Positions 33,547 to 60,055 of a stretch of DNA of 64,000 nt are shown in pieces; positions within the stretch are counted from its first letter, which is position 1; the number at the start of each line of letters is the position of its first letter. The position numbers and the translations under genes were made by a program. The DNA comes from Narcine bancroftii (Eukaryota), in NCBI RefSeq assembly GCF_036971445.1, contig NC_091476.1, forward strand, positions 58,900,001-58,964,000, in the 5' to 3' direction. The notes beneath the pieces are model-generated. The model ran no database searches and had not been told where the DNA came from. It saw nothing but the letters and a program-made list of their open reading frames with translations.

Positions 33547-34856
33547 TGTCGGACTCTGGCTTTACTTTCATCCCTAACGTCGAAGTACTCGAGATGGCAG
33601 AGGTCGTCAGCATCGAGTCCACGCTGCTGAAGATCCAGCTGTGCTGGATGGGTCACGTCTCCAGAATGGAGGACCATCGCCTTCCCAAGATCGTGTTATA
33701 TGGCTAGCTCTCCACTGGCCACCATGACAGAGGTGCACCAAAGAAAAGGTACAAGGACTGCCTAAAGAAATCTCTTGGTGCCTGCCACATTGACCACCGC
33801 CAGTGGGCTGATAACGCCTCAAATCGTGCATCTTGGCGCCTCACAGTTTGGCGGGCAGCAACCTCCTTTGAAGAAGACCGCAGAGCCCACCTCACTGACA
33901 AAAGGCAAAGGAGGAAAAACCCAACACCCAACCCCAACCAACCAATTTTCCCCTGCAACCGCTGCAACCGTGTCTGCCTGTCCCGCATCGGACTTGTCAG
34001 CCACAAACGAGCCTGCAGCTGACGTGGACTTTTTACCCCCTCCATAAATCTTCGTCCGCGAAGCCAAGCCAAAGAAGAAAGAAGAAAGAATTTAGTCTAT
34101 GTGTAGTCTGAGTCCAGCGTGTTCTTTGAATGAAGTGATAGGAGAAGGTATTCGGTTCAACAGTCAATTTATTATACAGCACAAGAATAAAACTTAACAG
34201 AGCTCTGGGTCAATCGTTAGTTCATAGGTCACCTGCACAGTGAGCTACTCCCCAAGACTGACCCCTATTGTCAGTTGGCTCAGTTTATATAGGTCAACCT
34301 TATCATACAGAACAAAAGTTGGCTTCCTTTGCTAGATTTCATTATCATACAGAACAAAAGTTGTCTTCCTTTGCTAGATCTTTTTGCATAAGGGTTATCA
34401 CAAGTCATCTCCTGTTTTGCAGATATCTGGGGTGTAGCACTCCCATCTTAATCCTTCAAGCCAGACTATCCTGTTGATTGGATCAGAAATTAATTCATCC
34501 CCAGATATTTCTAATCTGGCCAATTTCTGCTGTTCTCTTTAACACCTACTCCTGCCTTAATCTTCCTCCTAGACTGGTTTTCCATTCCCTTTGTTTCTTG
34601 CAGGCCATTCTTTGTTCTGGTCTGGTCTGTGTCTCCTGTGCTACTCACCACCTCCTTCAGTTTGAGCATTCCTCCTAAATCGTTTTATGCATTTCCTCTC
34701 CCTGTATTTGGGAGCAGACAATTTTGCTCAGCCAACTTTGCTCCATGCTGTGATTGCCACTTAATCGCATTCCTCTTTTCCCCTGAACCATGCAGTAAAT
34801 ATACACTTATTAATTATTTATTTATTTCATAATGTTTTAACCCCTAGATTCCAACA
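33547..34856 (-). mobile_element. ERV-A 3' LTR (about 780 bp excluding the RTE insertion)
   Basis: TG...CA termini with imperfect inverted repeat TGTTGGAATCT / TGTCGGACTCT; follows the PPT; TATATAAA at about 34284-34291 and AATAAA at 34168-34173 on the minus strand. Confidence 0.85.
33565..34090 (+). mobile_element. RTE LINE 3' fragment inserted in U5 of the ERV-A LTR
   Basis: Same RTE sequence in + orientation, with an in-frame TAG in YG*L; (AAG/AAAG)n tail; TTTA on both sides (33561-33564, 34091-34094). Confidence 0.92.
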
Positions 34857-34857
34857 G

Positions 34858-34867
34858 TCCCCCTTTT
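34858..34867 (-). promoter_or_regulatory. Polypurine tract of ERV-A
   Basis: AAAAGGGGGA immediately upstream of the LTR-start TG on the minus strand, just downstream of the env stop. Confidence 0.85.
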
Positions 34868-34904
34868 GGTCTCATGAAAATGAGACCAACCACCTGTTAC
34901 CTTA

Positions 34905-37900
34905 TTAGACCGAGACCTCAGGAGTTATTGCAAGGGCCGGCATCTCTGACCTCTTGTAGTCACTATACTCTTGGGAGGGCAGTAGGGACAAATACATGCC
35001 TTGGGGTCTGGGGATGACTCTCTGTGACAACGCTCGTTGAAGCAGGCACTGGAGGCAGGGAAGGATGCACGGGATCAGGACCAACGCCAACACCACAACT
35101 CCAGCAACTAGCACTGCAGTCTGTATCCATCCCCAGGCTCCAGAGAACAAATTTCCCAGCCATGAGCTGCCCCAGGGTCGCCAGGTCTGAACCGGGACAT
35201 GAGCTAATTTGCGAATGCCAGATGAAATCTCCTTTACTGCTTGCCCATTGTCATCGATTTTTAAACAACAATTAGTGAGATTCAATTTCCCACACACTCC
35301 CCCTTCAGTGGCTAACAAGTAGTCTAAAGCTAAGCGGTTCTGAAACACCGTGGCCCTAATCTGTTGCTGCTCTTCTGCCAACAGATCAAGGGCTGTGGCG
35401 GTGTCATTGGTGATAATTTCCAAAATAGCTTGTAAACGAATCAGACGGTTTAACATGTAAATTGGGGTTCGATATCCCCAAGACCCATTCTGGGCCCAAG
35501 TGGCAGGTCCGTAATAAGAAATAATGCGCTCTGGAGGCCAGTCCTCTCCCCACTCACCGATCTTTAAATCCCTCTTCTGGCGGAGCCCCTGATATACACG
35601 CGCTGCTAAAAGACGGGAGTCGTTCTGTGGTAACAGCACAAACTGTGGTTGAATGATACCTATACAGCACATTCCCCTCCAGTCTGGCTCCAAAAAAGTG
35701 TAAGCCGTATTCCCACAAATCCAATATAAACCCTCTGGGGCAAATCCGTGTGGATAGGGATGAGCCCAAAATTGTCTGAGTGAGGAAACCCCTTCATATG
35801 GATTAACGCCCGTGCAATTCCATACCACTTTCCCACGGGAGTTATCTGTTATAGGTCTGCAATTTGCTTCCTTCTGTGGGGACAGGAACCACCGGGGTCA
35901 CTGAGGATGCCATCGAGGGAACTTCCCCAAGATTTTAATCCTTGTGCACCTCGAATCTCCTTTATAATGCTTGTCTTGCTCCTTCCTGATACATTCCTCT
36001 CCTAATGGGTGATTAGCTAGATGCCATGTCTGGCGGGGGAGCGTCTCATCTGCCGATCCGTGAAAACTCATCAACTCCCACACTTCCAGGGGCTCCCCGC
36101 TCCATGGCCATGATCCATCTCTTGTGGGTCCCCCACATGCCCAACAGTTTTTAACCCCCAAGAGTTCTGCCGTAGTTTGGCAAAGGTCTACCCATCTATT
36201 GTCACCTACTCTGTGAGTGGCAGCCTGGCGTTTAGCGTTGGCATAGATATCCCCCTTTTCTCTGTCCCATACGTATGGTTGTTTTCCCTTTTGCCACATG
36301 GGGTCCCACTGTATCCTCTGAATGGGAATTGAGCCCCCTTTCTCCTTATCTTGGTCTCCCTCCGGGGCACAAAACCATGTTACTCCTTGGGGACAGCGGT
36401 CTCGATTTGGCGTGAACTGTAAAGATCCCTTATTGAACTTAACATCATGGGGGGGCGTGGCAAGATGGCGTAGGGAGCGGACGTGCATTCCCGGTCTCCC
36501 CAAGGCAGTTATATAAATACCCGTTTTAAGAATATTTCTTTTCTGTTAAAAGTCTTTGTTTTGTTTATCAATTGTTTTTAGTTTAAAATGGCAACAAAGA
36601 TTAAGGAAAATAGAGTTCAAATACAGAACTACACTCTCCGACTTTGGAAGAAACTCGGCCTACTTGCCCAGACAGAACCACGGAGTCAAGGCTGGAATTT
36701 TCTTAAGAACGGAGCTCATTAATTGGACTGTCGGATAAGCTGGCCTTGGACACCCCTCTGAAAGATGGTGATGAATATTGATTTGAAATGTTTTATGAAG
36801 ATAAATTGCAGTAATTGGCATTGGTTGCCCGTGAGTTTTAAAAATCCAGATAACATTAAAGTTTATTAGTGATTTTTTTTGGATGGAATATCGGAAGGAT
36901 GAATTTATTATCTATAAATACAGAACAAAATTACATTCTTTGACTTTGGAAGAAATTTGACCTATTTGCCCAGACAGAGCTGGAGTTGGTGCTGGAATTT
37001 TCTCAAGAACAGAACTTATTAAAGTTGATTTCGGACTCCTTTTTGAAAGATGGCGACGAATGTTGATTTGAAATATTTGAAATATTTTCTGAAGATAAAC
37101 ATATATATGGAACTCCTTGACCTGCAATAAGGTTTATCAGTGATTTTTTTTTTGGATGGAATATTGGAAGAGTGAATTTATTATCTGTGAGTATGCATAC
37201 ATTGCAAACAGATTTTAATAGTTTTGAAAAGGATTTTTTTTAAACTAAACAACAAGATCAGCTTAATATTGAGAAAATTGGAAAAAACGGAAACTTTATT
37301 ATTAAATTTGGAAATTCAGTAGAAAGAAACTATGAACAAGATTGATGATTTATAAAATTAAAGTCGAAGGAGCAATGTCCAAGAAGAGTTAAAAATTTTG
37401 AATAAGTTTTTCTTGAAAATAAACAATAATTTCAACTTAACATTGAGAAGATTGACAAAGTGGAAAATTTGGTATTAAATTGGGAAACACAGAAGAAAGA
37501 ACTTATGAATAACATTGATGCTTTAGAAGATCACGACCGAAGGAATTATGTTCAAGAAAATTTTAAAAGATTTGAAAAAAACTTTTTTTGAAAGTAAGCT
37601 ACAAATTCAACTTGAGACTGAGAAGAATGGAAGATTCGGTGTTGAACTGGGATGTTCAGAGGTGTTTTAATTCAGTGGATGAAATTCAGGAAGACTTGAA
37701 AAAAAAAATTTTTTTTAAACTTTTATTGATTGTAAACAATGTTTAACTCAGTGTTGGGAGGGTGGAAAGGGTGCAAAATTTAATATCAAGTTTGGATTTT
37801 CAAAAAAAAGAGTTTATGAATAAGATTGGTTAAATTGATGGACCGGGGTTTGTTTTATGGATATAAGAAATGATGATTTTTCGGTTTATACGTGTATTTT

Positions 37901-38352
37901 GTCTGCCTGGGGGGGGGGAGGGAGTCATATGCCACGTGGTTTATACCACACCCATTTGGGTTTTTGGGAATTAACCACCATAAGGTGGTTTCCTAAGGGG
38001 TTAGGGGAGGTGGGGGGGGTGAAAATTTGAAAATTATTTAGTATCTATTATGTAATATTATACTAAGTCAATTTGAAATGAATGTATGGAGATACTATAA
38101 ATAAATTTCAAAAAAAAAAAAGAATTTAACATCATACACTTGTCCATTATGCACACACTTACGTCCCGCGTGAGTCCCCACACAGTGTTCAGGAAAGTTA
38201 GTCCAATCAGCAAAGTACTGTTCTTTTTCGTTGTGCGACCCCCAGGCCGAGTGCACACACTTTGTACAGTGGTTTTCTACTCCAGCTCCTTCAAGGGCTC
38301 GGAATACCAGTACCCATAGTCCCCACATGGTATTCATCCCAGCTCCTTTCAT
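34905..38352 (-). pseudogene. env: ERV-A envelope, gamma-type, ERV3-1/HERV-R (ENR1)-like; interrupted by one insertion and one stop
   Basis: Signal peptide MWGLWVLVFRALEG; CWAC (CxxC); LYWICG; furin site RQKR; WPPERIISYYGPATWAQNGSWGYRTPIYMLNRLIRLQA; ISD QNRLALDYLL; CX6CC CGKLNLTNCC; TM helix. ORFs 38095-38352, 35898-36503 and 34905-35828 join in one frame. Confidence 0.93.
36449..38121 (+). mobile_element. Non-autonomous L1-derived element, copy 2, inserted in env
   Basis: Near-identical to 22988-25432 but with one 191-bp unit; poly(A); 14-bp TSD GAACTTAACATCAT (36435-36448) / GAATTTAACATCAT (38122-38135). Confidence 0.9.
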
Positions 38353-38461
38353 TGTTTTGATGTCAATAAATTGATTATGCCGTCAACCACTGTTATACAG
38401 TCACCGTAGTCCAATAGTCTCTTTAAAAAGGGACGTTAAGTGTTCTTAGTCCGTGGTTGCT

Positions 38462-41400
38462 TCACAGGTTCTCAGTCACCTCCGTTCGAATCTGTTCCAG
38501 TGTCTGTGTAGGTGGGTCCGTTGCTGCACACTGACTCCAATGATACCATGTCTCACCTTTTCCTTGTAGTCGAACCGCGTGGGACGTCCTCTCCACCACT
38601 CTGTAGGGACCTGTCCACCTGGGCTCCGACCACTTTCTTTTGATGACCTTTAGCAGAAACCACTCCGCGACTGAAGGTATCGGTGTTTCCCCTTCTCTGT
38701 TGGGACTTGTGACCTGTTGTGAAAAATCTGACACCAGAGCCGTTAGTTTTTCATAATAAAGCTTGCATCCCATTGAACTTACCTCATTCTTCATAGTCTG
38801 AATTCCGGCTCCTGGTCCTGGAAACTGGTGCCCTGTTTGTAGTTCATATGGAGTAAATCCTGTCACAGAACTTACTGAACTCCTTATTGACATTAATGCC
38901 AGGGGCAAAGCATCCACCCAATTTAGTTTGGTCCGTGCCTGTACTTTCCCGATCTTACCTTTTATTGTTTGGTTCATCCTCTCCACTTTCCCTTGGGATT
39001 GTGGATGGTACACCGTTCCAAAGGCATGTTTCAATCCCAACATTGCTTCTACCTCCTGTAGATCGTTATTCTTAAAATGACTTCCATTATCGGACCTAAT
39101 TTTTTTAGGAAATCCGTGTCTCGGAATATACTGGTTGATCAGGAATTTACATACCATCCTTGCATCTTGTCTTTTGGCAGGGATTGCCTCCGGCCACCCT
39201 GTGAACACATCTACTGCTACTAAGAGGTATCAATAGCCACTTACCCTCTCAATCATGTCCGTATAATCAAGTACGATTTCCTGCCCTGGTAACTTAGGTA
39301 GCGGGAACTGACCTTCATGTGGCTTTACAGTCGCCTTTACATTGAAAGTTATACATACCTCACACTCTCTAATATGGTTCTCCACCATCACCGGCAGGAA
39401 GGGGTGCCACCAATGTATCAAGTACCTTATCATCTGGTTCTTTCCACAGTGTGTTAGCCCATGCGCCTCCTCGAGGAGGGGTTTCATGAGTCCAGATGGT
39501 AAAACTGGCCTCCCGTCTATCGATCTCCATAATTCTTGATCCTTGGTTTCCCCCCTTTCCTCCCATACCATCCTTTCCTGAGGTGATGCCTTTGCTTGTT
39601 CCTGTACTATTACTTCTACCCTACACGGTGGTAATAAGTCATGTGCTGTTCTATCTGCCTGTATCATAATAAACTGAAGGCCGTATCCTGCTGCCCTTTT
39701 AGCGGCCATGTCTGCTTCCTGATTTCCCCGAGCCACCATCGTATCTGTTCTATCATGTCCTTTACATTTAAGAACTGCTAATGCCCTTGGCTTCAGGAGA
39801 GCCTCAGCCAGTTTCCTAACGTCCTTCTCGTGTTTAATTGGGGTCATTGCTGCTGTTAAAAACCCACTTCTAATCCATTGACTAAGTTCAACCTGTATTG
39901 TCCCTACCACATATGCCGAGTCTGTATATATATTGACCTCCTTCCCTTCTGCCCATTCTAATGCTGCTATCATTCCCTGTAGTTCTGCGAGTTGTGCTGA
40001 CTCCTTTCCTCTCACTGTCCCTGTAATGATTTCTTTAAATCCTCCTGTAGTTTTTCGTACCACCGCATAGGCAGCTTTCAATCCATCTGTGGGGTGTCTG
40101 TAACAACACCCATCTGTAAACAAGGTTTCATCTGGTACTCTTAAGGGTGTAGCCTGTAAGTCAGGTCTTATTTTAATATCCTTCACTACCCTCTTCTCAC
40201 AACAGTGTGGTTCTCCCTCTCCTATATTGTCTGCCATGTTAATGCCTTCATGGGTAAATGTAACATTTGGAGCATTCAGGATCTTTTCTAGTCTCGTCTG
40301 CCTTAGCGAAGTCATTGTAAATGCTGTCGAGCTCACAAATGCTACAATACTATGTGTTGTTAATACCGTCAGGCCATGTCCCATTACTATGTGTGCCACC
40401 TTTTGTAAAATCTTTGCTACTCCCGCTGCATGTCTCGTACATGGTGGGTGTCTGTCTTCCGTCGGGTCCAGTGTGACACTCACATACATGAGCACACATC
40501 TTCCACCCCCTTTTTTCTGAAAGAGAACACCATCAATTGTGTGTGCTTTTTCAGAAACATCCAAAAAGAAAGGTAGTTTATAATTTGGAATCGCCAAATC
40601 TGTAGCTGTTGTAAGAGCTTGCTTCAATAGAATAAAACTCATCTCAGCCTGTGCAGTCCAATCAAGTGTTGCTCCCAGATTCCTCATCCCCTGCTCATTC
40701 ACCAAAGTTCGCAGTGGATGTGTCAACTCACCATACGATGGGATAAACTGCCTACTATAACCTGACAAACCCAAATACGAAAGCATCTCCTTTACTGTCT
40801 TTGGTTTTGGATGATGTAGTATCGCTGTTCGATGTGCAGGGGAAATCCCTGTGCCTTTCGCTGAGACCATTCTCCCTAAAAAGGTGACCACCTGCCTGCA
40901 GCATTGCAGCTTTGAGCGAGAGACTTTAAAGCCTGCCTTGAACAGCTGCACTAGCAGGAGACAGGTGGCCTCCAAACAGGAAGTATGATCAGGTGCTGCT
41001 AATAGGATGTCATCTACATACTGGATCAGAACTACCCCACCTGGCAGTGCTAGCCCCCCCCCAGCTGTTCTTTCAACACCTGATTGAAAATCCCTGGAGA
41101 TAAGATGAAGCCCTGCGGAAGCCTAGTATACCACAACTTTCTACCTCTATACGTGAACGAAAACACATCTCTTAATGGTTCTGCCAGCGGCAAGCAAAAG
41201 AAAGCATTCGCTAAATCTATGCAAGAGAACCACTTGTGGTTAGGGGTTAAAGCAGTCATGGCAGTATATGGGTTTGGTACTGGAACTGTGGGTGTTCTCA
41301 CAATACCATTGATGCGCCTTAAGTCATGGGCCATCTGATATTTGCCCGTGTCTTGTTTAGGAACAGGTAAGATGGGTGTATTCCAACTAGAACACGAATG

Positions 41401-41580
41401 TTCCAACACCCCTGAATACCTAAGGCCATCAATGGTATCTGCCAAACCTTCCTCAGCTTCAGGTTTGTGGGGATACTGCATCTGCCAAATAGGGGTGTAA
41501 TCTGACAGTTCGAAGGTTATGGGATCAACCTGCTGACAAAAACCCACATCTGCTGATCCCACTGACCACAGGTTCTCAAT
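38462..41580 (-). pseudogene. pol: ERV-A pol (RT, RNase H, integrase), epsilon-like
   Basis: WNTPILPV, DLRRIN, IDLANAFF, LPQGFILSP, YVDD (41009-41020); RNase H FTDG/SAQLAEL/IYTDS/GNQEAD; IN HHCC, D-D-E (VLDYTD, SDNG, VERMN) and WTGPY. One frameshift in the C9 run at 41054-41062 and one TGA at 39230-39232. Confidence 0.94.
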
Positions 41581-41668
41581 CAGACTTGTCAGCCACAAAT
41601 GAGCCTGCAGCTGACGTGGACATTTACCCCTCCATAAATCTTTGTCCGCGAAGCCAAGCCAAAGAAGA
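41579..41668 (+). mobile_element. Very short RTE LINE 3' end at the ERV-A truncation point
   Basis: gacttgtcagccacaaatgagcctgcagctgacgtgg...aagccaagccaaagaaga; no TSD. Confidence 0.9.
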
Positions 41669-42415
41669 CAAAGGAGGCTGAAAATGCCACTGGTGGAGAC
41701 CCAGGGAGAGCGAGGAACGGAGATACAGCTGCCGTCAGCTCCACGCAGGCTTTGAACAGCCCATTCAAGGAGCCGATGATAGTTTTTTTTTTAAATCCCC
41801 TTCCATGGGGTCTCTGATTGGCAGCAGCTTCAAGGGTTGGCAGACTCTGGGTAAGCGGAGGACTGGAGCCGGGCACCAGAAAACGGAGAGACCAACCCCC
41901 GACTGAGAAGGAGAAGCAGAGGAGACAACCCAAGAGATGATGACCACGACGGCGGACCAATGAGGGGACTCTGCGGCTGGCGACTCAAGGTGAAGAACAC
42001 ATGGAGGCTGGGGGCTGCTGGAGACTGCTGTTGGGAGACTCGTGCTGGGCTTCAAATTGTTGAAGACTAGCTCGAAACTAGCTGAAGAGGAGCCAGGTAT
42101 TGGAACTGGGATGGGAGGGGGTGCTGCAGGCACGGACTGTGTCGGAGGTTCGGATCTGGAGTTCGGGTTGCAATAGTTTGAATAGTTTGAATGTGGCTGA
42201 GGTGGCTGCAGAAGTGCTGGAGGCGAATCTACGAACACTCAGTGACGCTGGGGGGGAGGGGGGTGGGGACACTCTCTTTTGCTACTCTCTCTCTGACTGT
42301 AGAGGCACTTCTGGCAATTTCTGCCAGTGCAAAATCTGTCTGCCTGACAGTGGGCAAAAGCAATTTCATGGAGCATGACACTGTTTTATTACACGACAAA
42401 AAATTGAATGTCTAT
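41669..42415 (+). other. Unclassified sequence, probably an interspersed-repeat fragment
   Basis: No credible ORF; ends in a LINE/SINE-tail-like ...ttttattacacgacaaaaaattgaat. Family not recognised. Confidence 0.3.
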
Positions 42416-43145: not shown

Positions 43146-43299
43146 AACCTGCTTCACCCAGAATCTTGACACTCAGCTAAGGTGAAGTTTAGGCTCATTT
43201 GCTCCAATAACTGTAATCAAGGCAGAGTGAGGAAGGGGGTGCCCCACTGTCTTGGGTAAACTTATACCTCTCATTTTGTTCATTTTAGATTGGTCACAG

Positions 43300-44047
43300 T
43301 GTTTGAGCTACCGAAAGAAAATAGACACACACACCGAGAGCAGTTCAGTTTATACAAAAGTTTATTACTAATTTAAAAGCTGATTTCACACTACAATATG
43401 CAAGCCCTTTCCAACTATACTTATCAACGCTTGGACTGGTCCCAACTGCCAAAGCGAGGCAACGACTGCACACTTGTAGTAGGTTGTCAGGGCGCCGGTA
43501 GCAGCTTCTCCACCTCCCCTGACCGGGACGTTGCTCGGACTCTGGCTGTTCTTCCTTCTTGAAAAGGGGTGTTCCCACCCCTCGGAGAGTCTAAACTTCA
43601 GCAGCAGGACCACAGGCTTATATACCCCAAAAACAATTAATCATGCGCCTACTCCTTCTAATATTTGTCAGTCAAAATCAAATTGAACATTACATTCTAC
43701 AATTTAGAAGATTAATTATTATGGAACCAGGATGTTATGATTTCCTGGTTTATCTCGTAGATACAAAGACTTATTAAAACTTCTCGAGCAAGACAGGTTG
43801 TGACCAATTCGTCAATTTCAGAGTGTTGCATTTGACAACTGCTTTCCCTGGGCCTCACAGTGGAATTCCATTTCAAAGTGTATCTTCAGATAAGTCCCCA
43901 TGGCTGAGTTTAATTACATCTGCTAGTTCTGAAAGTAAGGTGACCTGTGTGTGGACCCAGTGTCGTCAGTTCCACATAAGCAAAAAGCATCTGGGTACAT
44001 GGTTTTAATCCTCCATTACACCCACACACAGTTTTCAAGTCTCAACT
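43300..44047 (-). mobile_element. Probable solo LTR (boundaries uncertain)
   Basis: Left end TGTTTGAGCT resembles the 48130 LTR end; minus-strand AATAAA (43361-43366) and TATATAA (about 43618); CTCAAC at 44041 is inverted to the left end; flanks tcacag/tgacag. An alternative right end is 44228. Confidence 0.5.
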
Positions 44048-44424
44048 TGACAGCCACTCCTGATCATCAATGGGAAAAAAAACCTTTAATTCATGACATT
44101 TCACCAAAGGCTGAGAGAAATTCAGCAGGTCACATGGAAAACAAAGGGTAAATCCCTGATCTGGTGGCATGAATATCAAATTCTCCAATTTCCGCTGAGC
44201 CCCTCCCCATAACTCTTACCCTATCACACTGTGGTGCACTGTTAGACAGAATCAGACACAAACAAGGAAAAGACTGTACAACAGGCAAGCCTGGCCTTGC
44301 ATGTACTTCTTGCCCGGCCTCATTAGTACTGTAGGCACTGCCTCACTCGTACTCCATTCCAAGACACACCAGTACTCCAGGATCAGACACACTCGTCTCC
44401 AGGCCGAGCTTTGCCAGTACTCCG

Positions 44425-45420
44425 GGCCCAGCCTCCCCAGTACTCCAGGCCCAGCCTCCCCAGTACTCCAGGCCCAGCCTCCCCAGTACTCCAGGCCCAG
44501 CCTCCCCAGTACTCCAGGCCCAGCCTCCCCAGTACTCCAGGCCCAGCCTCCCCAGTACTCCAGGCCCAGCCTCCCCAGTACTCCAGGCCCAGCCTCCCCA
44601 GTACTCCAGGCCCAGCCTCCCCAGTACTCCAGGCCCAGCCTCCCCAGTACTCCAGGCCCAGCCTCCCCAGTACTCCAGGCCCAGCCTCCCCAGTACTCCA
44701 GGCCCAGCCTCCCCAGTACTCCAGGCCCAGCCTCCCCAGTACTCCAGGCCCAGCCTCCCCAGTACTCCAGGCCCAGCCTCCCCAGTACTCCAGGCCCAGC
44801 CTCCCCAGTACTCCAGGCCCAGCCTCCCCAGTACTCCAGGCCCAGCCTCCCCAGTACTCCAGGCCCAGCCTCCCCAGTACTCCAGGCCCAGCCTCCCCAG
44901 TACTCCAGGCCCAGCCTCCCCAGTACTCCAGGCCCAGCCTCCCCAGTACTCCAGGCCCAGCCTCCCCAGTACTCCAGGCCCAGCCTCCCCAGTACTCCAG
45001 GCCCAGCCTCCCCAGTACTCCAGGCCCAGCCTCCCCAGTACTCCAGGCCCAGCCTCCCCAGTACTCCAGGCCCAGCCTCCCCAGTACTCCAGGCCCAGCC
45101 TCCCCAGTACTCCAGGCCCAGCCTCCCCAGTACTCCAGGCCCAGCCTCCCCAGTACTCCAGGCCCAGCCTCCCCAGTACTCCAGGCCCAGCCTCCCCAGT
45201 ACTCCAGGCCCAGCCTCCCCAGTACTCCAGGCCCAGCCTCCCCAGTACTCCAGGCCCAGCCTCCCCAGTACTCCAGGCCCAGCCTCCCCAGTACTCCAGG
45301 CCCAGCCTCCCCAGTACTCCAGGCCCAGCCTCCCCAGTACTCCAGGCCCAGCCTCCCCAGTACTCCAGGCCCAGCCTCCCCAGTACTCCAGGCCCAGCCT
45401 CCCCAGTACTCCAGGCCCAG
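44425..45420. repeat. Homogeneous block of about 43 copies of CCTCCCCAGTACTCCAGGCCCAG
   Basis: Apparently identical monomers over about 1 kb. Confidence 0.95.
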
Positions 45421-46711
45421 CCGCACCAGTACTCCAGGCCCAGCCGCACCAGTACTCCAGGCCCAGCCGCCCCAGTACTCCAGGCCCAGCCGCCCCAGTA
45501 CTCCAGGCCCAGCCGCACCAGTACTCCAGGCCCAGCCTCCCCAGTACTCCAAGCCCAGCCTCCCCAGTACTCCAAGCCCAGCCTCCCCAGTACTCCAAGC
45601 CCAGCCTCCCCAGTACTCCAAGCCCAGCCTCCCCAGTACTCCAAGCCCAGCCTCACCAGTACTCCTGGCCCAGCCTCACCAGTACTCCTGGCCCAGCCTC
45701 ACCAGTACTCCTGGCACAGCCTCACCAGTACTCCAGGCCCAGCCTCACTAGTACTCCAGGCCATCCTCCACTAGTACTTCAGGCCAGGCTTCACTAGTAC
45801 TCTAGTCCCAGCTCCCCTCGTACTTCAGGCCAGCTACACTAATTCTCCAGGACCAGCCACACCAGTTTTCTAGACACAGTCTCATTAGTGCTCCAGTATC
45901 AGCCTCAACAGAACTCCAGGCCTTGCCACTCTCGTCATCCAGGCTCACGCTCACCTGATCTCCAGTCCCAGCCTCACCAGTACACCAGGACCAACCTCAG
46001 CAGTGCTCCAGGCCTGGCCACTCTAGTACTATACATCCAGCCTGACCAGTACTCCAGGCCAAGCATTACTAATACTCCAGAAGAAACATCACAAGCACAC
46101 CAGGCATAGATTCATTAGAACTTCAGGCACGGCATCAGCAGTAGCCCAGGCTCTGCATCAGTAGTACACCAAGCCCAGTCCCACCAGTACTCCTGTCGGG
46201 GCCTCCCCGGTGCTCCGGGCGGCGCCTCCCCAGCACTCCAGGCCAAGCCTCCGCAGCACTCCAGGCCCGGCCTCCCCAGCACTCCAGGTCCGGCCTCCCC
46301 AGCACTCCAGGCCAAGCTCCACTATTACTTCAGGCCAGGCTTCACAAGTACTCTAGTCCCAGCTACCTCGTACTTCAGGCCAGCTACACTAATTCTCCAG
46401 GACCAGCCACACCAGTTTTCTAGACACAGTCTCATTAGTACTCGAGTATCAGCCTCCCCAGTACTCCAGGCCCAGCCTCCCCAGTACTCCAGGCCCAACT
46501 CCACTAGTACTTCAGGCCCGGTGTCACTAGTACTCCTGGACTAGCCTCACGAGTTCCCTAGGCTCAGCCACATTGGTACTCCTGTATCAGCCTCACAAGA
46601 ACTCCAGACCTTGCCCTTCTAGTCATCCAGACTCACCCTCACCTGATCTCCAGTCCCAGATTCACCAGTACTCCACGCCCAGCCTTACCAGAACTCCAGG
46701 CCCAGCCTCAG

Positions 46712-47530
46712 TAGTACTCCAGGCCCAGTCTCACTAGTACTCCAGGCCCAGTCTCACTAGTACTCCAGGCCCAGTCTCACTAGTACTCCAGGCCCAGTCT
46801 CACTAGTACTCCAGGCCCAGTCTCACTAGTACTCCAGGCCCAGTCTCACTAGTACTCCAGGCCCAGTCTCACTAGTACTCCAGGCCCAGTCTCACTAGTA
46901 CTCCAGGCCCAGTCTCACTAGTACTCCAGGCCCAGTCTCACTAGTACTCCAGGCCCAGTCTCACTAGTACTCCAGGCCCAGTCTCACTAGTACTCCAGGC
47001 CCAGTCTCACTAGTACTCCAGGCCCAGTCTCACTAGTACTCCAGGCCCAGTCTCACTAGTACTCCAGGCCCAGTCTCACTAGTACTCCAGGCCCAGTCTC
47101 ACTAGTACTCCAGGCCCAGTCTCACTAGTACTCCAGGCCCAGTCTCACTAGTACTCCAGGCCCAGTCTCACTAGTACTCCAGGCCCAGTCTCACTAGTAC
47201 TCCAGGCCCAGTCTCACTAGTACTCCAGGCCCAGTCTCACTAGTACTCCAGGCCCAGTCTCACTAGTACTCCAGGCCCAGTCTCACTAGTACTCCAGGCC
47301 CAGTCTCACTAGTACTCCAGGCCCAGTCTCACTAGTACTCCAGGCCCAGTCTCACTAGTACTCCAGGCCCAGTCTCACTAGTACTCCAGGCCCAGTCTCA
47401 CTAGTACTCCAGGCCCAGTCTCACTAGTACTCCAGGCCCAGTCTCACTAGTACTCCAGGCCCAGTCTCACTAGTACTCCAGGCCCAGTCTCACTAGTACT
47501 CCAGGCCCAGTCTCACTAGTACTCCAGGCC
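46712..47530. repeat. Homogeneous block of about 35 copies of variant TCTCACTAGTACTCCAGGCCCAG
   Basis: Apparently identical monomers, each containing ACTAGT. Confidence 0.95.
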
Positions 47531-48129
47531 TATTTCACTCGCACTACATGTGAAGCATAGTACTCCAGGCCCAGCTTTAATAGTACTTCTGACCCACCAT
47601 CAAGAGCAATCCAGAACATTCTCACTAGTTCTCCAGGCCCAGTCTCACCAGTACTCCAGGTCTAGCCTCACCAGTACTCCTGGCCCAGCCTCACCAGTAC
47701 TCCAGGCCAAGCTCCACTAGTACTTCAGGCCAGGCTTCACTAGTACTCTAGTCCCAGCTCCTTCGTACTTCAGGCCAGCTACACTAATTCTCCAGGACCA
47801 GATACAGTCTCATTAGTACTCCAGTATCAGCCTCCCCAGTACTCCAGGACCAGCCTCCCCAGTACTCCAGGACCAGCCTCCCCAGTACTCCAGGCCCAGC
47901 CTCCCCAGTACTCCAGGCCCAGCCTCCCCAGTACTCCAGGCCCAGCCTCCCCAGTACTCCAGGCCCAGCCTCCCCAGTACTCCAGGCCCAGCCTCCCCAG
48001 TACTCCAGGCCCAGCCTCCCCAGTAGTCCAGGCCCAGCCTCCCCAGTAGTCCAGGCCCAGCCTCACCAGTACTCCTGGCCCAGCCTCACCAGTACTCCTG
48101 GCCCAGCCTCACCAGTACTCCTGGCCCAG

Positions 48130-48369
48130 TGTTGAGCTCGTCGAAAGAACCAAAGACTTGTTGATCCAAACCAAGGCTTTTATTAGCAAAAGACCGGAGC
48201 TCTTCACAGGTGGCCGACCAGTCCGGAATGATCCGACCTGGCTAGGGACACAACCCTTTAAGGCCCAAACAATAGGTGTGGCTTAGCTCTCAGCCAATCG
48301 CTGTAAGCACAGTCTAGATACAGTAACTATATACACTATGTACATTGGTGATAGATCTGTACTATCACA
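48130..48369 (-). mobile_element. 240-bp solo LTR (Gypsy- or BEL-like) inserted in the satellite
   Basis: TG...CA termini; 5-bp TSD CCCAG (48125-48129, 48370-48374); AATAAA on the minus strand at about 48179. Confidence 0.88.
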
Positions 48370-51300
48370 CCCAGCCTCACCAGTATTCCAGGCCCAGCTT
48401 CCCCTGTACTCCAGGCCCAGCCTCACCAGTACTCCAGGCCCAGCCTCACCAGTACTCCAGGCCCAGCCTCACCTGTACTCCTGGCACAGCCTCACCAGTA
48501 CTCCAGGCCCAGCCTCACCAGTACTCCAGGCCAACCTCCACTACTACTTCAGGCCAGAATTCACTAGTACTCTAGTTCCAGCTCCCCTCGTACTTCAGGC
48601 CAGCTACACTAATTCTCCAGGACCAGCCACACCAGTTTTCTAGACCCAGTCTCATTAGTACTCCACTATCAGCCTCAGCAGAACTCCAGGCCTTTCCCCT
48701 CTCATCATCCAGGCTCACGTTCACCTGATCTCCAGTCCCAGCCTCACCAGTACACCAGGACCAATCTCAGCAGTGCTCCAGGCCTGGCCCCCTCTAGTAC
48801 TATACGTCCAGCCTGACCAGTACTCCAGGCCAAGCATTACTAATACTCCAGAAGAAATATCACAAGCACACCAGGCATAGATTCATTAGAACTTCAGGCA
48901 CGGCATCAGCAGTAGCCCAGGCTCTGCATCAGTAGTACACCAAGCCCAGTCCTACTAGTACTCCTGTCGGGGCCTCCCCGGTGCTCCTGGCGGCGCCTCC
49001 CCAGCACTCCAGGCCAAGCCTCCCCAACACTCCAGGTCCAGCCACCCCAGTACTCCAAGCCCAGCCTCCCCAGTACTCCAGGCCCAGCCTCACCAGTACT
49101 CCTGCCCCACCCTCACCAGTACTCCAGGCCGAGCCTCACGAGTACTCCAAGCCCAGCCTCCCGAGTACTCCAGGTCCATTCTCACCAGTACTCCAGGCCC
49201 AGCCTTACCAATACTTCTGGCCCAGACTCACCAGTACTCCAGACCCAGCCTCGCCAGGACTCCAGGCCCGGCCTCCCCAGCACTTCAGGTCCAGCCTCCC
49301 CAGTACTCCAGGCCCAGCTTCCCCAGAACTCCATGCCCAGCTTCCCCAGTACTCCAGGCCCAGCCTCCCCAGTACTCCAGGCCCAGCCTCACCAATATTC
49401 CAGTCCCAGCCTCCCCAGTACTCCAGGCCCAGCCTCACCAGTACTCCAGGCCCAGTCTCACCAGTACTCCAGGCCCAGCCTCGCAAGTACTCGAGGCCAA
49501 GCTCCACTAGTACTTCAGGCCAGGCTTCACTAGTACTCTAGTCCCAGCTCCCCTCGTACTTCAGGCCAGCTACACTAATTCTCCAGGACCAGCCGCACCA
49601 GTTTTCTAGACCGAGTCTTATTAGTACTCCAGTATCAGCCTCAGCAGAACTCCAGGCCTTGCCCCTCTCGTCATCCAGGCTCACGCGCACCTGATCTCAA
49701 GTCCCAGCCTCAGCAGTACACCAGGACCAGCCTCAGCAGTGCTGCAGGCCTGGCCCCTCTAGTACTATACGTCCAGCCTGACCAGTAATCCAGGCCAAGC
49801 ATTACTAATACTCCAGAACAAACATCACAAGCACACCAGGCATAGATTCATTAGACCTTCAGGCACGGCGTCAGCAGTAGTCCAGGCTCTGCATCAGTAG
49901 TACACCAAGCCCAGTCCCACCAGTACTCCTGGCGGGGCCTCCCCGGTGCTTCTGGCCCGGCCTCCCCGGTGCTAGTCGCCTGGCCTCCCCGGTGCTCCTG
50001 GCCCGGCCTCCCCGGTGCTCCTGGCGCGGCTTCCCCGGTGCTCCTGGCCCGGCCTCCCCGGTGCTCCTGGCCCGGCCTCCCCGGTGCTCCTTGCGCGGCC
50101 TCCCCGGTGCTAGTGGCCGTGCCTCCCCGGTGCTCCTGGCCCGGCCTGCCCGATGCTCCTGGCCCGGCCTCCCCGGTGCTCCTGGCCCGGCCTCCCCAGC
50201 ACTCCAGGTCCCGCCACCCCAGTACACCAGGACCAGCCTCCCCAGTAATCCAGGCCCAGCCTCACCAGTACTCCAGGCCCAGCCTCCCCAGTACTCCAGG
50301 CCCAGCCTCACCAGTACTCCAGGCCCAACTCCACTAGTACTTGAGGCCCGGTGTCACTAGAACTCCTGGACCAGCCTCATGAGTTCCCTAGGCTCAGCCA
50401 CATTGGTACTCCAGAATCAGCCTCACAAGAACTCCATACCTTGCCCTTCTAGTCATCCAGACTCACCCTCACCTGATCTCCAATTGCACATTCACCAGTA
50501 CTCCAGGCCCAGCCTCACCAGAACTCCAGACCCAGCTTCACTAGTACTTCTGACCCAGCATCAAGAGCAATCCAGGCCATTCTCACTAGTTCTCCAGGCC
50601 CAGCCTCACCAGTACTCCAGATCCAACCTCACCAGTACACCAGGCCCAGCCTCACCTGTACTCCAGGCCCAGCCTCACCAGTACTCCAGGACCAGCCTCA
50701 CTAGTACACCAGGCCCAGCCTCACCTCTACTCAAAGGCCCAGCCGCACCAGTACTCCAGGCCCAGTCTCCCCAGTACTCCAGGCGCAGCCTCACCAGTAC
50801 TCCAGGCCAGCCTCACCAGTACTCCAGGCCGAACCTCACAAGTACTCAAGGCCCAGCCTCACCAGTACTCCAGGCCCAGCCTCACCAGTACTTCAGCCCA
50901 GAGTCACTAGTACTGGACCAGCCTCACCAGTTCCCTAGGCCCAGCCACATTGGTACTCCAGTATCAGCCTCACCAGAACTCCAGACCTTGACCTTCTATT
51001 CCTCCAGACTCACGCTCACCTGATCTCCAGTCCCAGACCACCAGTACTCCAGGCCATCCTCACTAGTTCTCTAGGCCCAGCCTCACCAGAAGTCCAGGCC
51101 CAGCCTCAGTAGTACTCCAGACCGTCTCACTAGTACTCCAGGCCTATTTCACTCGCACTACATGTGAAGCTTCACCAGAACGGCAGGCCCAGCTTCACTA
51201 GTACTTCTGACCCAGCATCTAGAGCAATCCAGGCCATTCTCACTAGTTCTCCAGGCCCAGCCTCACCAGTACTCCAGATCCAGCCTCACCAGTACTCCAG

Positions 51301-54300
51301 GCCCAGCCTCACCAGTACTACAGGACCAGCCTCACTAGTACACCAGGCCCAGCCTCATCTGTACTCCAGGCCCAGCCGCACCAGTACTCCAGGCCCAGCC
51401 TCACCAGTACTCCAGGCCCAACTCCACTAGTACTTCAGCCCGGCGTCACTAGTACTCCTGGACCAGCCTCACCAGTTCCCTAGGCCCAGCCACATTGGTA
51501 CTCCAGAATCAGCCTCACCAGAACTCCAGAACTTGACCTTCTATTCCTCAGACTCACCCTCACCTGACTTCCAGTCCCAGACCACCAGTACTCCAGGCCA
51601 TCCTCACTAGTTCTCTAGGCCCAGCCTCACCAGTTCTCCAGGCCAAGCTCCACTAGTACTTCAGGCCAGGCTTCACCAGTACTCTAGTCCCAGATCCCCT
51701 CGTACTTCAGTCCAGCTACACTAATGCTCCAGGACGAGCCACACCAGTTTTCTAGACCAAGTCTCATTAGTACTTCAGTATCAGCCTCAGCGGAACTCCA
51801 GGCCTTGCCCCTCTAGTCATCCAGGCTCACACTCACCTGATCTCCAGACCCAGCCTCACCAGTAAACAAGGCACAGCCTCAGCAGTGCTCCAGGCCTGGC
51901 CACTCAAGTACTATACGTCCAGCCTGAGCAGTACTCCAGGCCCAGCATTACTAATGCTCCAGAACAAACATCACAAGCACACCAGGCATAGATTCATTAG
52001 ACCTTCATGCACGGCGTCAGCAGTAGTCCAGGCTCTGCATCAGTAGTACACCAAGCCCAGTCCCACCAGTACTCCTGGCGGGGCCTCCCCGGTGCTTCTG
52101 GCCCGGCCTCCCCGGTGCTAGTCGCCTGGCCTCCCCGGTGCTCCTGGCCCGGCCTCCCCGGTGCTCCTGGCGCGGCTTCCCCGGTGCTCCTGGCCCGGCC
52201 TCCCCGGTGCTCCTGGCCCGGCCTCCCCGGTGCTCCTGGCCCGGCCTCCCCGGTGCTAGTGGCCCTGCCTCCCCGGTGCTCCTGGCCCGGCCTCCCCGGA
52301 GCTCCTGGCCCGGCCTCCCCGGTGCTCCTGTCCGGGCCTCCCCGCTGCTCCTGGCCCGGCCTCCCCAGCGCTCCAGGCCCGGCCTCCCCAGCACTCCAGG
52401 TCCCGCCACCCCAGTACTCCAGGACCAGCCTCCCCAGTAATCCAGGCCCAGCCTCACCAGTACTCAAGGCCCAGCCTCCCCAGTACTCCAGGCCCAGCGT
52501 CCCCAGTACTCCAGGCCCAGCCTCACCAGTACTCCAGGCCCAACTCCACTAGTACTTCAGGCCCGGTTTCACTAGAACTCCTGGACCAGCCTCATGAGTT
52601 CCCTAGGCTCAGCCACATTGGTACTCCAGTATCAGCCTCACAAGAACTCCAGACCTTGCCCTTCTAGTCATCCAGACTCACCCTCACCTGATCTCCAGTT
52701 GCACATTCACTAGTACTCCAGGCCCAGCCTCACCAGAACTCCAGACCCAGCTTCACTAGTACTTCTGACTCAGCATCAAGAGCAATCCAGGCCATTCTCA
52801 CTAGTTCTCCAGGCCCAGCCTCACCAGTACTCCAGATCCAGCCTCGCCAGTACACCAGGCCCAGCCTCACCTGTACTCCAGGCCCAGCCTCACCAGTACT
52901 CCAGGACCAGCCTCACTAGTACACCAGGCCCAGCCTCACCTCTACTCCAGGCCCAGCCGCACCAGTACTCCAGGCCCAGCCTCCCCAGTATTCCAGGCGC
53001 AGCCTCACCAGTACTCCAGGCCCAGCCTCACCAGTACTCCATTCCCAGCCTCACAAGTACTCAAGGCCCAGCCTCACCAGTACTCCTGGCCCAGCCTCAC
53101 CAGTATTCCAGGCCCAGCCTCCCCAGTACTCCAGGCCCAGCCTCACCAGTACTTCAGCCCGGAGTCACTAGTACTGGACCAGCCTCACCAGTTCCCTAAG
53201 CCCAGCCACATTGGTACTCCAGTATCAGCCTCACCAGAACTCCAGACCTTGACCTTCTATTCCTCCAGACTCACCCTCACCTGATCTCCAGTCCCAGACC
53301 ACCAGTACTCCAGGCCATCCTCACTAGTTCTCTAGGCCCAGCCTCACCAGAAGTCCAGGCCCAGCCTCAGTAGTACTCCAGACCGTCTCACTAGTACTCC
53401 AGGCCCAGTCTCACTAGTACTCCAGGCCTATTTCACTCGCACTACATGTGAAGCTCCACCAAAACGGCAGGCCCAGCTTCACTAGTACTTCTGACCCAGC
53501 ATCAAGAGCAATCCAGGCCATTCTCACTCGTTCTCCATGCCCAGCCTCACCAGTACTCCAGATCCAGCCTCACCAGTACTCCAGGCCCAGCCTCACCAGT
53601 ACTACAGGACCAGCCTCACTAGTACACCAGGCCCAGCCTCACCTGTACTCCAGGCCTAGCCGCACCAGTACTCCAGGCCCAGCCTCACCAGTACTCCAGG
53701 CGCAGCGTCCCCAGTACTCCAGGCCCAACTCCACTAGTACTTCAGACCGGCGTCACTAGTACTCCTGGACCAGCCTCACCAGTTCCCTAGGCCCAGCCAC
53801 ATTTGTACTCCAGAATCAGCCTCACCAGAACTCCAGAACCTGACCTTCTATTCCTCAGACTCACCCTCACCTGACTTCCAGTCCCAGACCACCAGTACGC
53901 AAGGCCATCCTCACTAGTTCTCTAGGCTCAGCCTCACCTGTTCTCCAGGCCAAGCTCCACTAGTACTTCAGGCCAGGCTTCACCAGTACTCTAGTCCCAG
54001 ATCCCCTCGTACTTCAGTCCAGCTACACTAATAATCCAAGACTAGCCACACCAGTTTTCTAGACCAAGTCTCATTAGTACTCCAGTATCAGCCTCAGCAG
54101 AACTCCAGGCCTTGCCCCTCTAGTCATCCAGGCTCACGCTCACCTGATCTCCAGACCCAGCCTCACCAGTACACCAGGCCCAGCCTCAGCAGTGCTCCAG
54201 GCCTGGCCACTCAAGTACTATACGTCCAGCCTGAGCAGTACTCCAGGCCCAGCATTACTAATACTCCAGAACAAACATCACAGGTACACCAGGCATAGAT

Positions 54301-55967
54301 TCATTAGACCTTCATGCACGGCGTCAGCAGTAGTCCACGCTCTGCATCAGTTGTACACCAAGCCCATTCCCACCGGTGCTCCTGGCCCGGCCTCCCCGGT
54401 GCTCCTGGCCCGGCCTCCCCGGTGCTCCTGGCCCGGCCTCCCCGCTGCTCCTGGCCCGGCCTCCCCGGTGCTTCTGGCCCGGCCTCCCCGGTGCTCCTCA
54501 CCCGGCCTCCCCGGTACTCCAAGCCCATCCTCCCCAGTACTCCAGGCCCAGCCTCCCCAGTACTCCAGGCCCAGCCTCACCAGTACTCCTGCCCCAGCCT
54601 CACCAGTACTCCAGGCCGAGCCTCACCAGTACTCCAAGCCCAGCCTCCCAAGTACTCCAGGCCCAGCCTCACCAGTACTCCAGGCCCAACTCCACTAGTA
54701 CTTCAGGCCCGGTGTCACTAGTACTCCTGGACCAGCCTCACGAGTTCCCTAGGCCAAGCCACATTGGTACTCCAGTATCAGCCTCACCAGAACTCCAGAC
54801 CTTGCCCTTCTAGTCATCCAGACTCACCCTCACCTGATCTCCAGTCCCAGATTCACCAGTACTCCAGGCCCAGCCTCACCAGAACTCCAGGCCCAGCCTC
54901 AGTATTACTCCAAACCGTCTCACAAGTACTCCAGGACCAGTCTCACTAGTACTCCAGGCCTATTTCACTCGAACTACATGTGAAGCCTCACCAGTACTCC
55001 AGGGCCAGCCTCACCAGTACTCCAGGCCCAGCCTCACCAGTACTCCAGGCCCAGCCTCACCAGTACACCAGGCCCAGCCTCGCATGTACTCCAGTCCCAG
55101 CCTCACCAGTACACGTGGCCCAGCCTCAGCAGTGCTCCAGGCCTGGCCACTCTAGTACTATACGTCCAGCCTGACCAGTACTCCAGGCGCAGCATTACTA
55201 ATACTCCAGAACAAACATCACAAGTACAACATTAGAACTTCAGGCACGGCGTCAGCAGTAGTCCAGGCTCTGCATCAGTTGTACACCAAGCCCAGTCCCA
55301 CCAGTACTCCTGGACGGGCCTCCCCGGTGTTCCTGGCCCAATCTCCCCGGTGCTCCTGTCCAGGTCTCCCCGGTGCTCCTGGCCTGGCCTCCCCAGTGCT
55401 CCTGGCCCAGCATCCCCGGTGCTCCTGGCCCGGCATCCCTGGTGCTCCTGGCCTGGCCTCCCCGGTGCTCCTGTCCCGGCCTCCCCGGTGCTCCAGTCCC
55501 GGCCTCCCCGGTGCTCCTGTCCCGGCCTCCCCAGTGCTCCTGACCCGGACTCGCCGGTGCTCCTGGCCCGGCTTCGCCGGTGCTCCTGGCTCGGCCTCCC
55601 CAGCACTCCAGGCCCGGCCTCCCCAGCACTCCAGGACCCGCCTCCCCAGTACTCCAGGCCCTGCTTCGCCAGTACTCCAGGCCCAGCCTCACCAGTACTC
55701 CAGGCCCAGCCACATTGGTACTCCAGTATCAGCCTCACCAGAACTCCAGACCTTGCCCTTCTAGTCATCCAAACTCACCCTCACCTGATCTCCAGTCCCA
55801 GATTCACCGGTACTCCAGGCCCAGGCTCACCAGCACTCCAGGCCCAGCCTCAGTAGTACTCAAGACCGTCTCACTAGTACTCCAGGCCCAATCTCACTAG
55901 TAGTCCAGGCCTATTTCACTCGCACTACATGTGAAGCCTCACCAGAACTCCAGGCCCAGCTTCTCTA

Positions 55968-56655
55968 TGTGAGAGATGGGAAAACTGATCTAAAATTATG
56001 AACATGAAGGAAACTAAAATTCATACATCAGTTAATGGCTGTAACCAGTACAAACAGGATGAACTTGGGGATTAGGATGCAGGAAAGCAGAATCAGCACA
56101 ATTAACATAAGAATCTTCTAGTCTTTGTGACAAGACTAAGATAAGGAGTGGTAAGGAACAATAGAATGTAGGAAGTTGAGGTAGTCTGGAACAGATAAGG
56201 GTCTCCTAGCCCTGGACAGAAGTACCAAATCCTACATATCTAATTAGTTAACCTTACAGAGATTTATACATGTTAAATTAGCCAACCATAGAAAGGATGA
56301 GCCAACTCTGCATATCAAGAGACTGTAGCCCCGAGAATCAGGAAGATGTGAATAAGGACAATAACATGAAGGGACACCGACAGGTTACCCCCTGGTCCTC
56401 CAAGTATACTGAAATTGCACGTAGGCAGGCAGGATTGCCTAATGCCAAACCTCTCCAGCAGGAGGCAGAAGAATGTAAGGGGGAGGGTATTCCAATACTG
56501 AAATCAACTGTATAAAAGTTGGGTGAGCCCCAGTATATGTGTGTATTCCCAGGGTAAGGGGAAGCACCCAACTTTGCATTGTTGCTGTAATAAATGTTCT
56601 TTGTTCTCAATTTTTGTCTCGAGCAATTTCTTTAAAGGTACTTCTATTTCTAACA
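55968..56655 (+). mobile_element. ERV-B 5' LTR (688 bp)
   Basis: TGTGAGA...TCTAACA; TATAAAA at 56511-56517; AATAAA at 56589-56594; followed by PBS; homologous to 28324-29010. Confidence 0.93.
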
Positions 56656-56657
56656 AA

Positions 56658-56675
56658 TGGGGGCTCGCCCGGGAT
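56658..56675 (+). promoter_or_regulatory. Primer-binding site, tRNA-Pro
   Basis: TGGGGGCTCGCCCGGGAT, one mismatch from the MLV PBS-Pro TGGGGGCTCGTCCGGGAT, 2 nt after the LTR. Confidence 0.93.
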
Positions 56676-56850
56676 CACACTCCCTCCACTGACAGAGTAC
56701 CCCGACGACGAGAGTAGGTGCACCCCGGCTGATTCAGCTGGACTCACGGACGACGGGTGGCTGGTCAGTGGAAGAAGCGAGTGATATCCGAGAAGAGGCA
56801 TTGAGAACTAACGACGGAAGGAAGCGCGCTAGAGCATTCCTACTGGAACC

Positions 56851-56858
56851 CGGTAAGA
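56851..56858 (+). promoter_or_regulatory. Putative major splice donor of ERV-B
   Basis: CG|GTAAGA between the PBS and the gag ATG. Confidence 0.55.
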
Positions 56859-56880
56859 CAAATTTTACTTGCCTCTCAGA

Positions 56881-59439: not shown

Positions 59440-59700
59440 TTATTAAAATCTAGTGATTGGTTATATGTAAAAGCATGGCAAGAGGAACAACTAAAACCTG
59501 CCTGGGATGGTCCCTACTGTGTACTTTTAATTACAGACACCGCAGTACAAACAAGAGAAAAAGGCTGGACCCACATTCAAAGAATTAAACCAGCTACCGA
59601 ACCACAGAATCACGACAGTCAAACTCAACCCTCCACCTGGCGTGCAGTGCCTCATCCTTCTGACCTGAAAGTGACACTACACCGTGAAAAAGTGCCGTAA
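59440..59700 (+). pseudogene. pol: ERV-B integrase C-terminal (GPY/F) remnant
   Basis: DWLYVKAWQEEQLKPAWDGPYCVLLITDTAVQTREKGWTHIQRIKPA. Confidence 0.88.
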
Positions 59701-60055
59701 TGTTGTTTTTACCATTTATTGTATTGTTTAATTGTTGCTTCTCCATTTCTGGGACAGCACTTAATTACTCACAATGTATTAAGTCCTCCTGGGATAGGGG
59801 CAGCAGAGGTCACAATTATTTTCCTTTAGAATGTAGACAGGGCATAGATTTAATGTATAGTCATAGTGGGGTATGGGTTAACAAGGGATTCCAATACGGA
59901 CCAGGGGAACTGAACAGCTTTAGTGGAGTACATCTAATTTGTATCTTAGCCTACACAGGTATTAAAGACAGGAGTTTTAAAGCGATAGCACAAAGGACAT
60001 GGTGGGACAAAGACAGACAGAATGGTAGTCAGGATTGTACATGTTGCAGAGAGAG
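59700..60055 (+). pseudogene. env: ERV-B env N-terminal remnant
   Basis: ATG overlaps the pol stop (TAATG); hydrophobic leader MLFLPFIVLFNCCFSISG; Cys/Trp-containing SU start; runs into satellite. Confidence 0.65.

Follow-up and report, generated by a model that had tools for sequence, protein, structure and literature searches.

According to the textbooks, retroviruses recombine when the template is switched between two RNAs packaged together. Exchange of env is thought to open new host groups to a retrovirus, and cases in which both parental lineages are in view are few and come mostly from land vertebrates. In the available parts of the literature, epsilon-related endogenous retroviruses (ERVs) with a gamma-type env, together with widespread conflict between pol and env, are described by Chen et al. 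(bioRxiv 10.1101/2021.11.23.469661) for amphibians and fish. The general pattern, six cartilaginous fish included, is treated in that work and in bioRxiv 10.1101/2024.07.05.601823 and PMC9967133. One ERV of the lemon shark is placed near a human ERV, and epsilon-like ERVs are noted in the elephant shark (PMC4422223). The terms 'ERV3' and 'HERV' do not occur in the accessible text of Chen et al.; the pairing discussed here, in a shark or ray, may be among the data behind its Fig. 4A and in S1-S4. In the partly accessible literature that we searched (including PMC10536682, PMC4724089, PMC8672886, PMC10435555, and PMC4977317), no published report of an SSSV-like pol joined to an ERV3-type env was found, though supplements may hold one, and a search for literature on Narcine retroviruses found none. 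As a process, env swapping is known; what appears to be new is this pairing, and also that families resembling the donor live in the same genome.

The subject of this study is a high-copy class I ERV family of the ray Narcine bancroftii, here called family A, one copy of which lies in a 64,000-nt stretch of the genome (contig NC_091476.1), the whole of which we call the window. With a probability of roughly 0.8, we read this family as a mosaic that combines a fish-type pol resembling that of SSSV with an ERV3-type env of the kind carried by HERV-I-like families, and whose likely origin is a single template switch.

Structure and Surroundings of the Window Copy

The window copy is a 5'-truncated and inactivated member of family A, lying on the minus strand and 96-98% identical to its siblings. 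It begins at its truncated 5' limit with the N-terminal part of reverse transcriptase (RT; 41053..41580), which gives an RVT_1 match at E 2.8e-11, is 95-98% identical to siblings, and contains the motifs IDLANAFF and LPQGFILSP to which a preliminary description of this DNA had drawn attention. The remaining RT, the tether, RNase H and the zinc finger of integrase (IN) follow at 39233..41050, with 74% amino acid identity to protein P0089 of Scomber scombrus, and then the integrase core and tail including the stop codon (38462..39229), in which rve and MLVIN_C are recognized and from which the IN-region tree was made. The tail reads KRKWSEPRWTGPY..GKGETWYHWSQC (38465-39229), and it differs, as had been noticed, from that of another element of the window, ERV-B. 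Behind the pol stop (38462-38464) lies a spacer of 109 nt (38353..38461), conserved at 95-97% in 20/20 siblings; the ATG of env is at 38352, close to the distance of about 110 nt given before, and three siblings likewise show 109 nt. The env gene starts with its start codon, a likely signal peptide and the beginning of the surface subunit (SU; 38128..38352; 37% amino acid identity to the env of the resident family B over residues 28-73), continues after an insertion with the middle part of SU (35898..36446; 53-55% to family-B env), and ends with the SU C-domain, an RQKR furin site, an ERV3-type transmembrane subunit (TM) with immunosuppressive domain (ISD) and CX7CC, and the membrane anchor (34905..35897; TLV_coat at E 4.7e-10; 67% to protein P0001). 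This last part holds the TM block WPPERIISYYGPATWAQNGSWGYRTPIYMLNR, as previously read. RVT_1, RNase_H, rve, MLVIN_C and TLV_coat are thus the Pfam domains found in the copy. A predicted hairpin followed by a polypurine tract (PPT) occupies 34857..34889, the sibling equivalents folding at -10 to -16 kcal/mol, and the 3' LTR (34089..34856) shares 94% identity with an 814-nt sibling LTR across 785 nt.

The preliminary description saw few lesions in this element, but the copy is more heavily damaged than that. The 5' LTR, gag and protease are missing, since the 5' half of a sibling, LTR excepted, matches nowhere in the window; the reading frame of pol breaks near 41050 and meets a stop at 39230-39232; env has a stop at 35898-35900 and is split by a plus-strand retroposon of 1,681 nt (36447..38127) with a poly(A) tail and a 10-nt target duplication; and an RTE-like insertion (33565-34080) cuts off the far end of the 3' LTR. 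The retroposon in env, which the preliminary description does not mention and which we take to be L1/Tx1-like, is missing from 20/20 siblings checked, and has a second copy, 96.6% identical, at 23881-25435. As an element (36447-38127; 22987-25435) it is short, poly(A)-tailed and without a long open reading frame, and tandem 191-nt repeats lie close to the 5' end of the copy at 23-25 kb.

Elsewhere in the window, positions 1-33500 form a long degenerate (CA)n-rich tract, a large 23-nt tandem satellite lies at 44250-56000 and 60000-64000, and RTE-like 3' fragments are found at 9129-9636, 14324-14409, 25761-26272, 33565-34080 and 41583-41670. An LTR-like stretch at 43248-43800 (minus strand), 85% identical to a repeat in locus L065 and unrelated to the family-A LTR, probably represents the solo LTR of a different family. 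ERV-B (55968-60010, plus strand) is a degraded relative of the resident families B and E, with LTR, a presumably Pro-type primer site, gag and IN tail; its env start is 50% identical to P0001, its pol is largely replaced by other DNA, and its LTR has a solo copy at 28322-29010 (minus strand, 89%).

Family A in the Ray Genome

In so rearranged a locus, amid satellites and LINE pieces, one might suspect that pol and env were brought together locally, by nested insertion, deletion or mis-assembly. We give this hardly any credence. When the 3.3-Gb genome of this electric ray, to which an env protein labelled N. bancroftii at NCBI is 100% identical, was searched, the pol-env junction recurred in 40/40 scored hits at 96-100% (761 candidates; window copy included), so that the pairing is a trait of the family and not a one-off. 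The same junction thus stands at 39 other loci on many contigs, at 96-98%, in siblings with the order LTR-gag-pol-env-LTR and LTR pairs of up to 99.9% identity. The IN tail was likewise recovered in 150/150 scored hits at 93-100%.

Siblings with the whole order from LTR to LTR, such as the preliminary description had wanted sought, were at hand, some of them with deletions. In the sibling set, which consists of the 20 top-scoring copies and is not a random sample, the env frame is uninterrupted in 4/20 and the pol frame in 2/20, and the open reading frames are gag, pol and env only, without accessory genes. An LTR pair was found in 7 of 11 family-A copies, at 99.9, 99.9, 98.5, 98.2, 98.1, 94.6 and 90.3% identity (two partial). 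A tRNA-Trp gene of the host matches the primer site with its 3' end; among 11 loci matching the primer-site pattern, ARAGORN called a tRNA at one. A single in-frame TGA divides gag from pol (L032, L035, L038 and L050, near position 2909 of the oriented copies); in gammaretroviruses a TAG stands between these genes. Among the sequencing runs listed for the family-A pol/junction stretch there was no RNA run; a second organism label carries this stretch at a share like that of the first (0.39), and two more do so at small shares.

Relatives of the Pol

The pol search gave 101 hits, family A's own pol not being among them. They are led by S. scombrus (74% amino acid identity) and by clusters with Epinephelus and Echeneis proteins, followed by S. 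japonicus, and the named hits are teleost except for one lizard and one contig labelled as a metagenome-assembled genome (MAG). In the RT tree (33 rows, with SSSV, REV, WDSV, SnRV, MoMLV, GALV and RD114 as references; a quick tree of 57 rows also placed it with the SSSV-like elements), family A falls into a seven-row clade (98/95) with elements of mackerel, grouper and remora, and this clade of fish elements and family A is nested in a 100/100 clade that holds SSSV. WDSV and its sister form a separate branch (100/98), and the HERV-I-like group also lies outside the SSSV clade. The IN-region tree agrees, all 13 ray rows being monophyletic at 100/100. The pol had been called epsilon-like from its motifs, and those of WDSV (L105) do read IDLSNAFF and LPQGFIHSP as was stated; on the RT and IN trees, however, the term is applicable only in a loose sense, for an SSSV-like teleost clade that does not adjoin WDSV. 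It is to be noted that the pol and env trees were made without human HERV-I, human ERV3, ZFERV and lokiretroviruses, and that the teleost origin of the pol may partly reflect sampling, because shark and ray pols are under-sampled and family A's own pol was absent from the 101 hits. Structural hits in the PDB (MLV RT, syncytins) were also considered as evidence of lineage and were uninformative.

What kind of env do these relatives carry? Eight of the 101 pol hits have a fused env with CX6CC, and 8/8 of them are of the VPRG/NKNVD type (gene models, some spliced); a ninth env is of a third type. VPRG-type env is also present in SSSV, in a Xenopus ERV and in family D of the ray (6/6), and ERV3-type env was seen in 0/4 fish-type contigs with both pol and env. 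The relatives with a visible env share 35-57% identity in pol, and do not include the nearest ones, at 68-75% (Scomber, Epinephelus, Echeneis). The closest fish contigs, L145 and L147, are degraded with no env visible (29 of 60 loci examined), and initial searches of viral and metagenome contigs with IN gave no match. ENA contigs of 1,736 nt included both a pol fragment of mackerel type and an env of ERV3 type; this pairing was rejected as a coincidence, because pol pieces from the protease/RT region cannot share so short a contig with that env. As a separate matter, records labelled as bacterial MAGs (Brevinema and Cetobacterium; L198-L202, P0131) hold fish retroviral pol/env contigs and are likely host contamination. 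Family D (L076-L081) is itself very young and high-copy, with an SSSV-like pol and a VPRG-type env, and 150/150 of its scored hits are near-identical.

Relatives of the Env

The best hits of the env carry the names ERV3-1 Env-like or ENR1. ERV3-1-like proteins of rays and sharks lead (53-67% over TM) and those of tetrapods follow, with ERV3-like envs of marmot, marmoset and gibbon among the hits. No teleost name appeared among the 88 and the 120 listed of 201 env hits, and a HMMER search against 50% representatives gave no env closer than the ray families. Ten env clusters were looked up, seven of which are from sharks or rays and one from a frog, two having no name; the SU-covering relatives that have a name are elasmobranch. 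ESM Atlas returned only generic TLV_coat clusters. The env of family A has the WPPERII..YYGP block, CWxC, a furin site and CX7CC.

The ray itself harbors families B, C and E, in which an ERV3-type env stands behind a different pol (IDLKDAFW/LPQGFTESP, as in the window's ERV-B), one that we take to be HERV-I-like. Such a pol or IN tail lies upstream of env at 19/20 loci of family B (one without pol), 5/5 of C and 10/10 of E, and the RT of these families groups with swallow elements. Taken more widely, the pol that accompanies ERV3-type env is HERV-I-like or gamma-like in the three ray families, in swallows and snakes, and in L118. Family C (L071-L075) is very young and high-copy, with LTR pairs at 99.8-100%. 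In a SU-TM tree of 21 rows, from which 12 intended rows had dropped for want of anchor motifs, family A joins B and E at 91/96, with 80/73 for A and B as sisters, the bootstrap not having settled. Calibration by amino acid identity tells the same: between B and E the pol is 75% and the env 59-61% identical, and between B and A the values are 33% for pol and 61% for env.

Family A is thus a mosaic, likely from an old env swap: its pol most resembles the pols of bony-fish viruses, and its env most resembles the envs that unrelated viruses have left in this ray. How widely this mosaic is distributed is another question. The mackerel, grouper and remora elements might share the ERV3-type env, the swap having occurred in a common ancestor or in a shark or ray recombinant later passed to bony fish, in which case it would not be tied to entry into rays. 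By the calibration, the split of the A env from those of B and E is about as old as that of the A pol from the mackerel pol, and frequent host switching is reported for the clade in the accessible part of PMC6001957. This broader and older mosaic is nevertheless unlikely in our opinion: the pols of mackerel, grouper and remora are in the same database that was searched for env, and yet the searches gave no full-length env, teleost-named or unnamed, nearer than those of B and E, the nameable SU-covering relatives being elasmobranch.

Conflict between the Trees and the Junction

Separate RT and TM trees, as the preliminary description had proposed, were run on 23 rows having both regions, and the position of family A differs between them. 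AU tests on these rows, with groups picked after the trees were seen, rejected congruence in 4/5 cases. With the RT data, family A together with the HERV-I-like group was rejected at p 0.0005, and A with B and E at p 5e-39; with the TM data, A with cichlids was rejected at p 2e-63, and the nine-row RT clade at p 0.02. The union of A with all fish epsilon-like rows was not rejected by TM (p 0.49), a test that is uninformative because in an unrooted tree it asks only that A be at the edge of the ERV3 group. Could the ERV3-type env be simply ancestral, the conflict arising from differences in rate, or could the resident families have taken their env from family A? TM alone resolves the ERV3 group poorly, and the support for A with B is modest, as given above. 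However, the TM of family A is 67% identical to B versus 21-30% to SSSV, family D and the Xenopus ERV, and the clade in which A is deeply nested has env of a different type, while ERV3-type env sits elsewhere with HERV-I-like or gamma-like pol. The AU tests and the identity calibration largely refute such readings without capture, and we hold them to be very improbable. Env capture between class I lineages, as initially proposed, has the support of both the discordant trees and the differing env types of the pol relatives.

The gap between pol and env had also been taken as a sign of recombination, and this argument is weak: the distance is +3 nt in SSSV, +6 in family C, +34 in RD114, -77 in family D and 109 in family A, so that SSSV, C and RD114 have no overlap either and the gap is not diagnostic. 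Nor did mapping within 38350-38460, the interval suggested before, yield an exact breakpoint: at the DNA level the 109-nt spacer matches neither families B-E nor SSSV, and no donor alignable across the junction was found among them. DNA similarity between A and B is confined to env, from about 400 nt past the start to the membrane anchor, and the primer site, PPT and LTR of family A are unlike those of B, C and E. This suggests that the exchange may have covered env alone. The 5' crossover was likely between the pol stop and early SU, that is, in the spacer or the env signal region. We infer that the donor was a relative of families B and E, and not B or E itself because dS is saturated. The hairpin before the PPT is also present in L118, which is gamma-like and has an env of ERV3 type, and is therefore a weak marker of the backbone that is not lineage-specific.

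Age of the Probable Swap and Spread of the Family

Older copies of family A, found with a teleost IN query, are mostly 84-90% identical to young copies in IN DNA, and 70-80% in the LTR. Among the 20 ray loci closest to teleost IN, the ERV3-type env is complete in two, reduced by a deletion to its first 60-80 codons in 12, and missing from six; none has env of another type, and hence no parent with the original env was seen among these 20. Since older copies hold the remnant of the same env, the swap predates the spread of the family. The element had been judged fairly young, which is true of the window copy with its 96-98% identity to siblings; its youth does not date the swap, which is old and common to the whole family.

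Between subfamilies env is under purifying selection, with dN/dS of 0.23-0.28 in nine pairs (0.14-0.32 for IN in five pairs), the pairs being non-independent and chosen among copies with near-open frames; within the young burst the env values are 0.40-0.89 (four pairs). This pattern would fit spread by reinfection. Env-deleted derivatives (L205-L224) occur in old and younger subfamilies alike, with the first 60-80 env codons followed by the 3' LTR, the deletion being either shared or recurrent. In addition, env dS between subfamilies (0.11-0.32) exceeds IN dS (0.05-0.16) for L084, L086 and L100 against L034, perhaps as a result of additional env exchange among members of the family.

How might the mosaic have come about? 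Two co-packaged retroviral RNAs, one contributing a gag-pol backbone that would have come from bony fish, may have been joined by a template switch. The captured env would then have worked in entry and the family would have spread by reinfection, with env-deleted derivatives perhaps moving by retrotransposition or complementation. The fuller history, in which a bony-fish retrovirus entered rays by capturing a resident HERV-I-like env and spread in at least two waves with env under purifying selection, is tentative, and we put it at slightly less than even odds. Because a backbone with close bony-fish relatives and donor-like env families are found in the same ray, it becomes testable whether env capture is linked to a jump from one vertebrate class to another. 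Classification of shark and ray ERVs by RT only hides such hybrids.

Comparison with Known Systems

SSSV is like family A in its RT clade (100/100), its IDLANAFF-type motif, a simple gag-pol-env organization, an in-frame stop between gag and pol, and an env that does not overlap pol; it differs in its VPRG-type env with CX6CC, 21% identical to that of family A, which is ERV3-type with CX7CC. WDSV (Epsilonretrovirus) has similar RT motifs, but lies on a separate RT branch, has an env of 1,225 amino acids without match to the A env, and carries accessory open reading frames. The HERV-I-like ERVs of elasmobranchs (B, C and E) offer the opposite picture: the A env is 58-61% identical to those of B and E in amino acids, with the same TM block, CWxC and CX7CC, whereas pol shares 33%, the primer site, which we take to be Pro-type, differs from the tRNA-Trp site of A, and LTR and PPT are unrelated. 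Parallels in principle are RD114, a python ERV and XtERV-S, in which, by the accessible parts of their descriptions, gag-pol and env stem from different lineages and for which a link to a new host has been proposed. They belong to other lineages and hosts, while the parents of family A are both class I and aquatic, and a donor-like family resides in the same genome.
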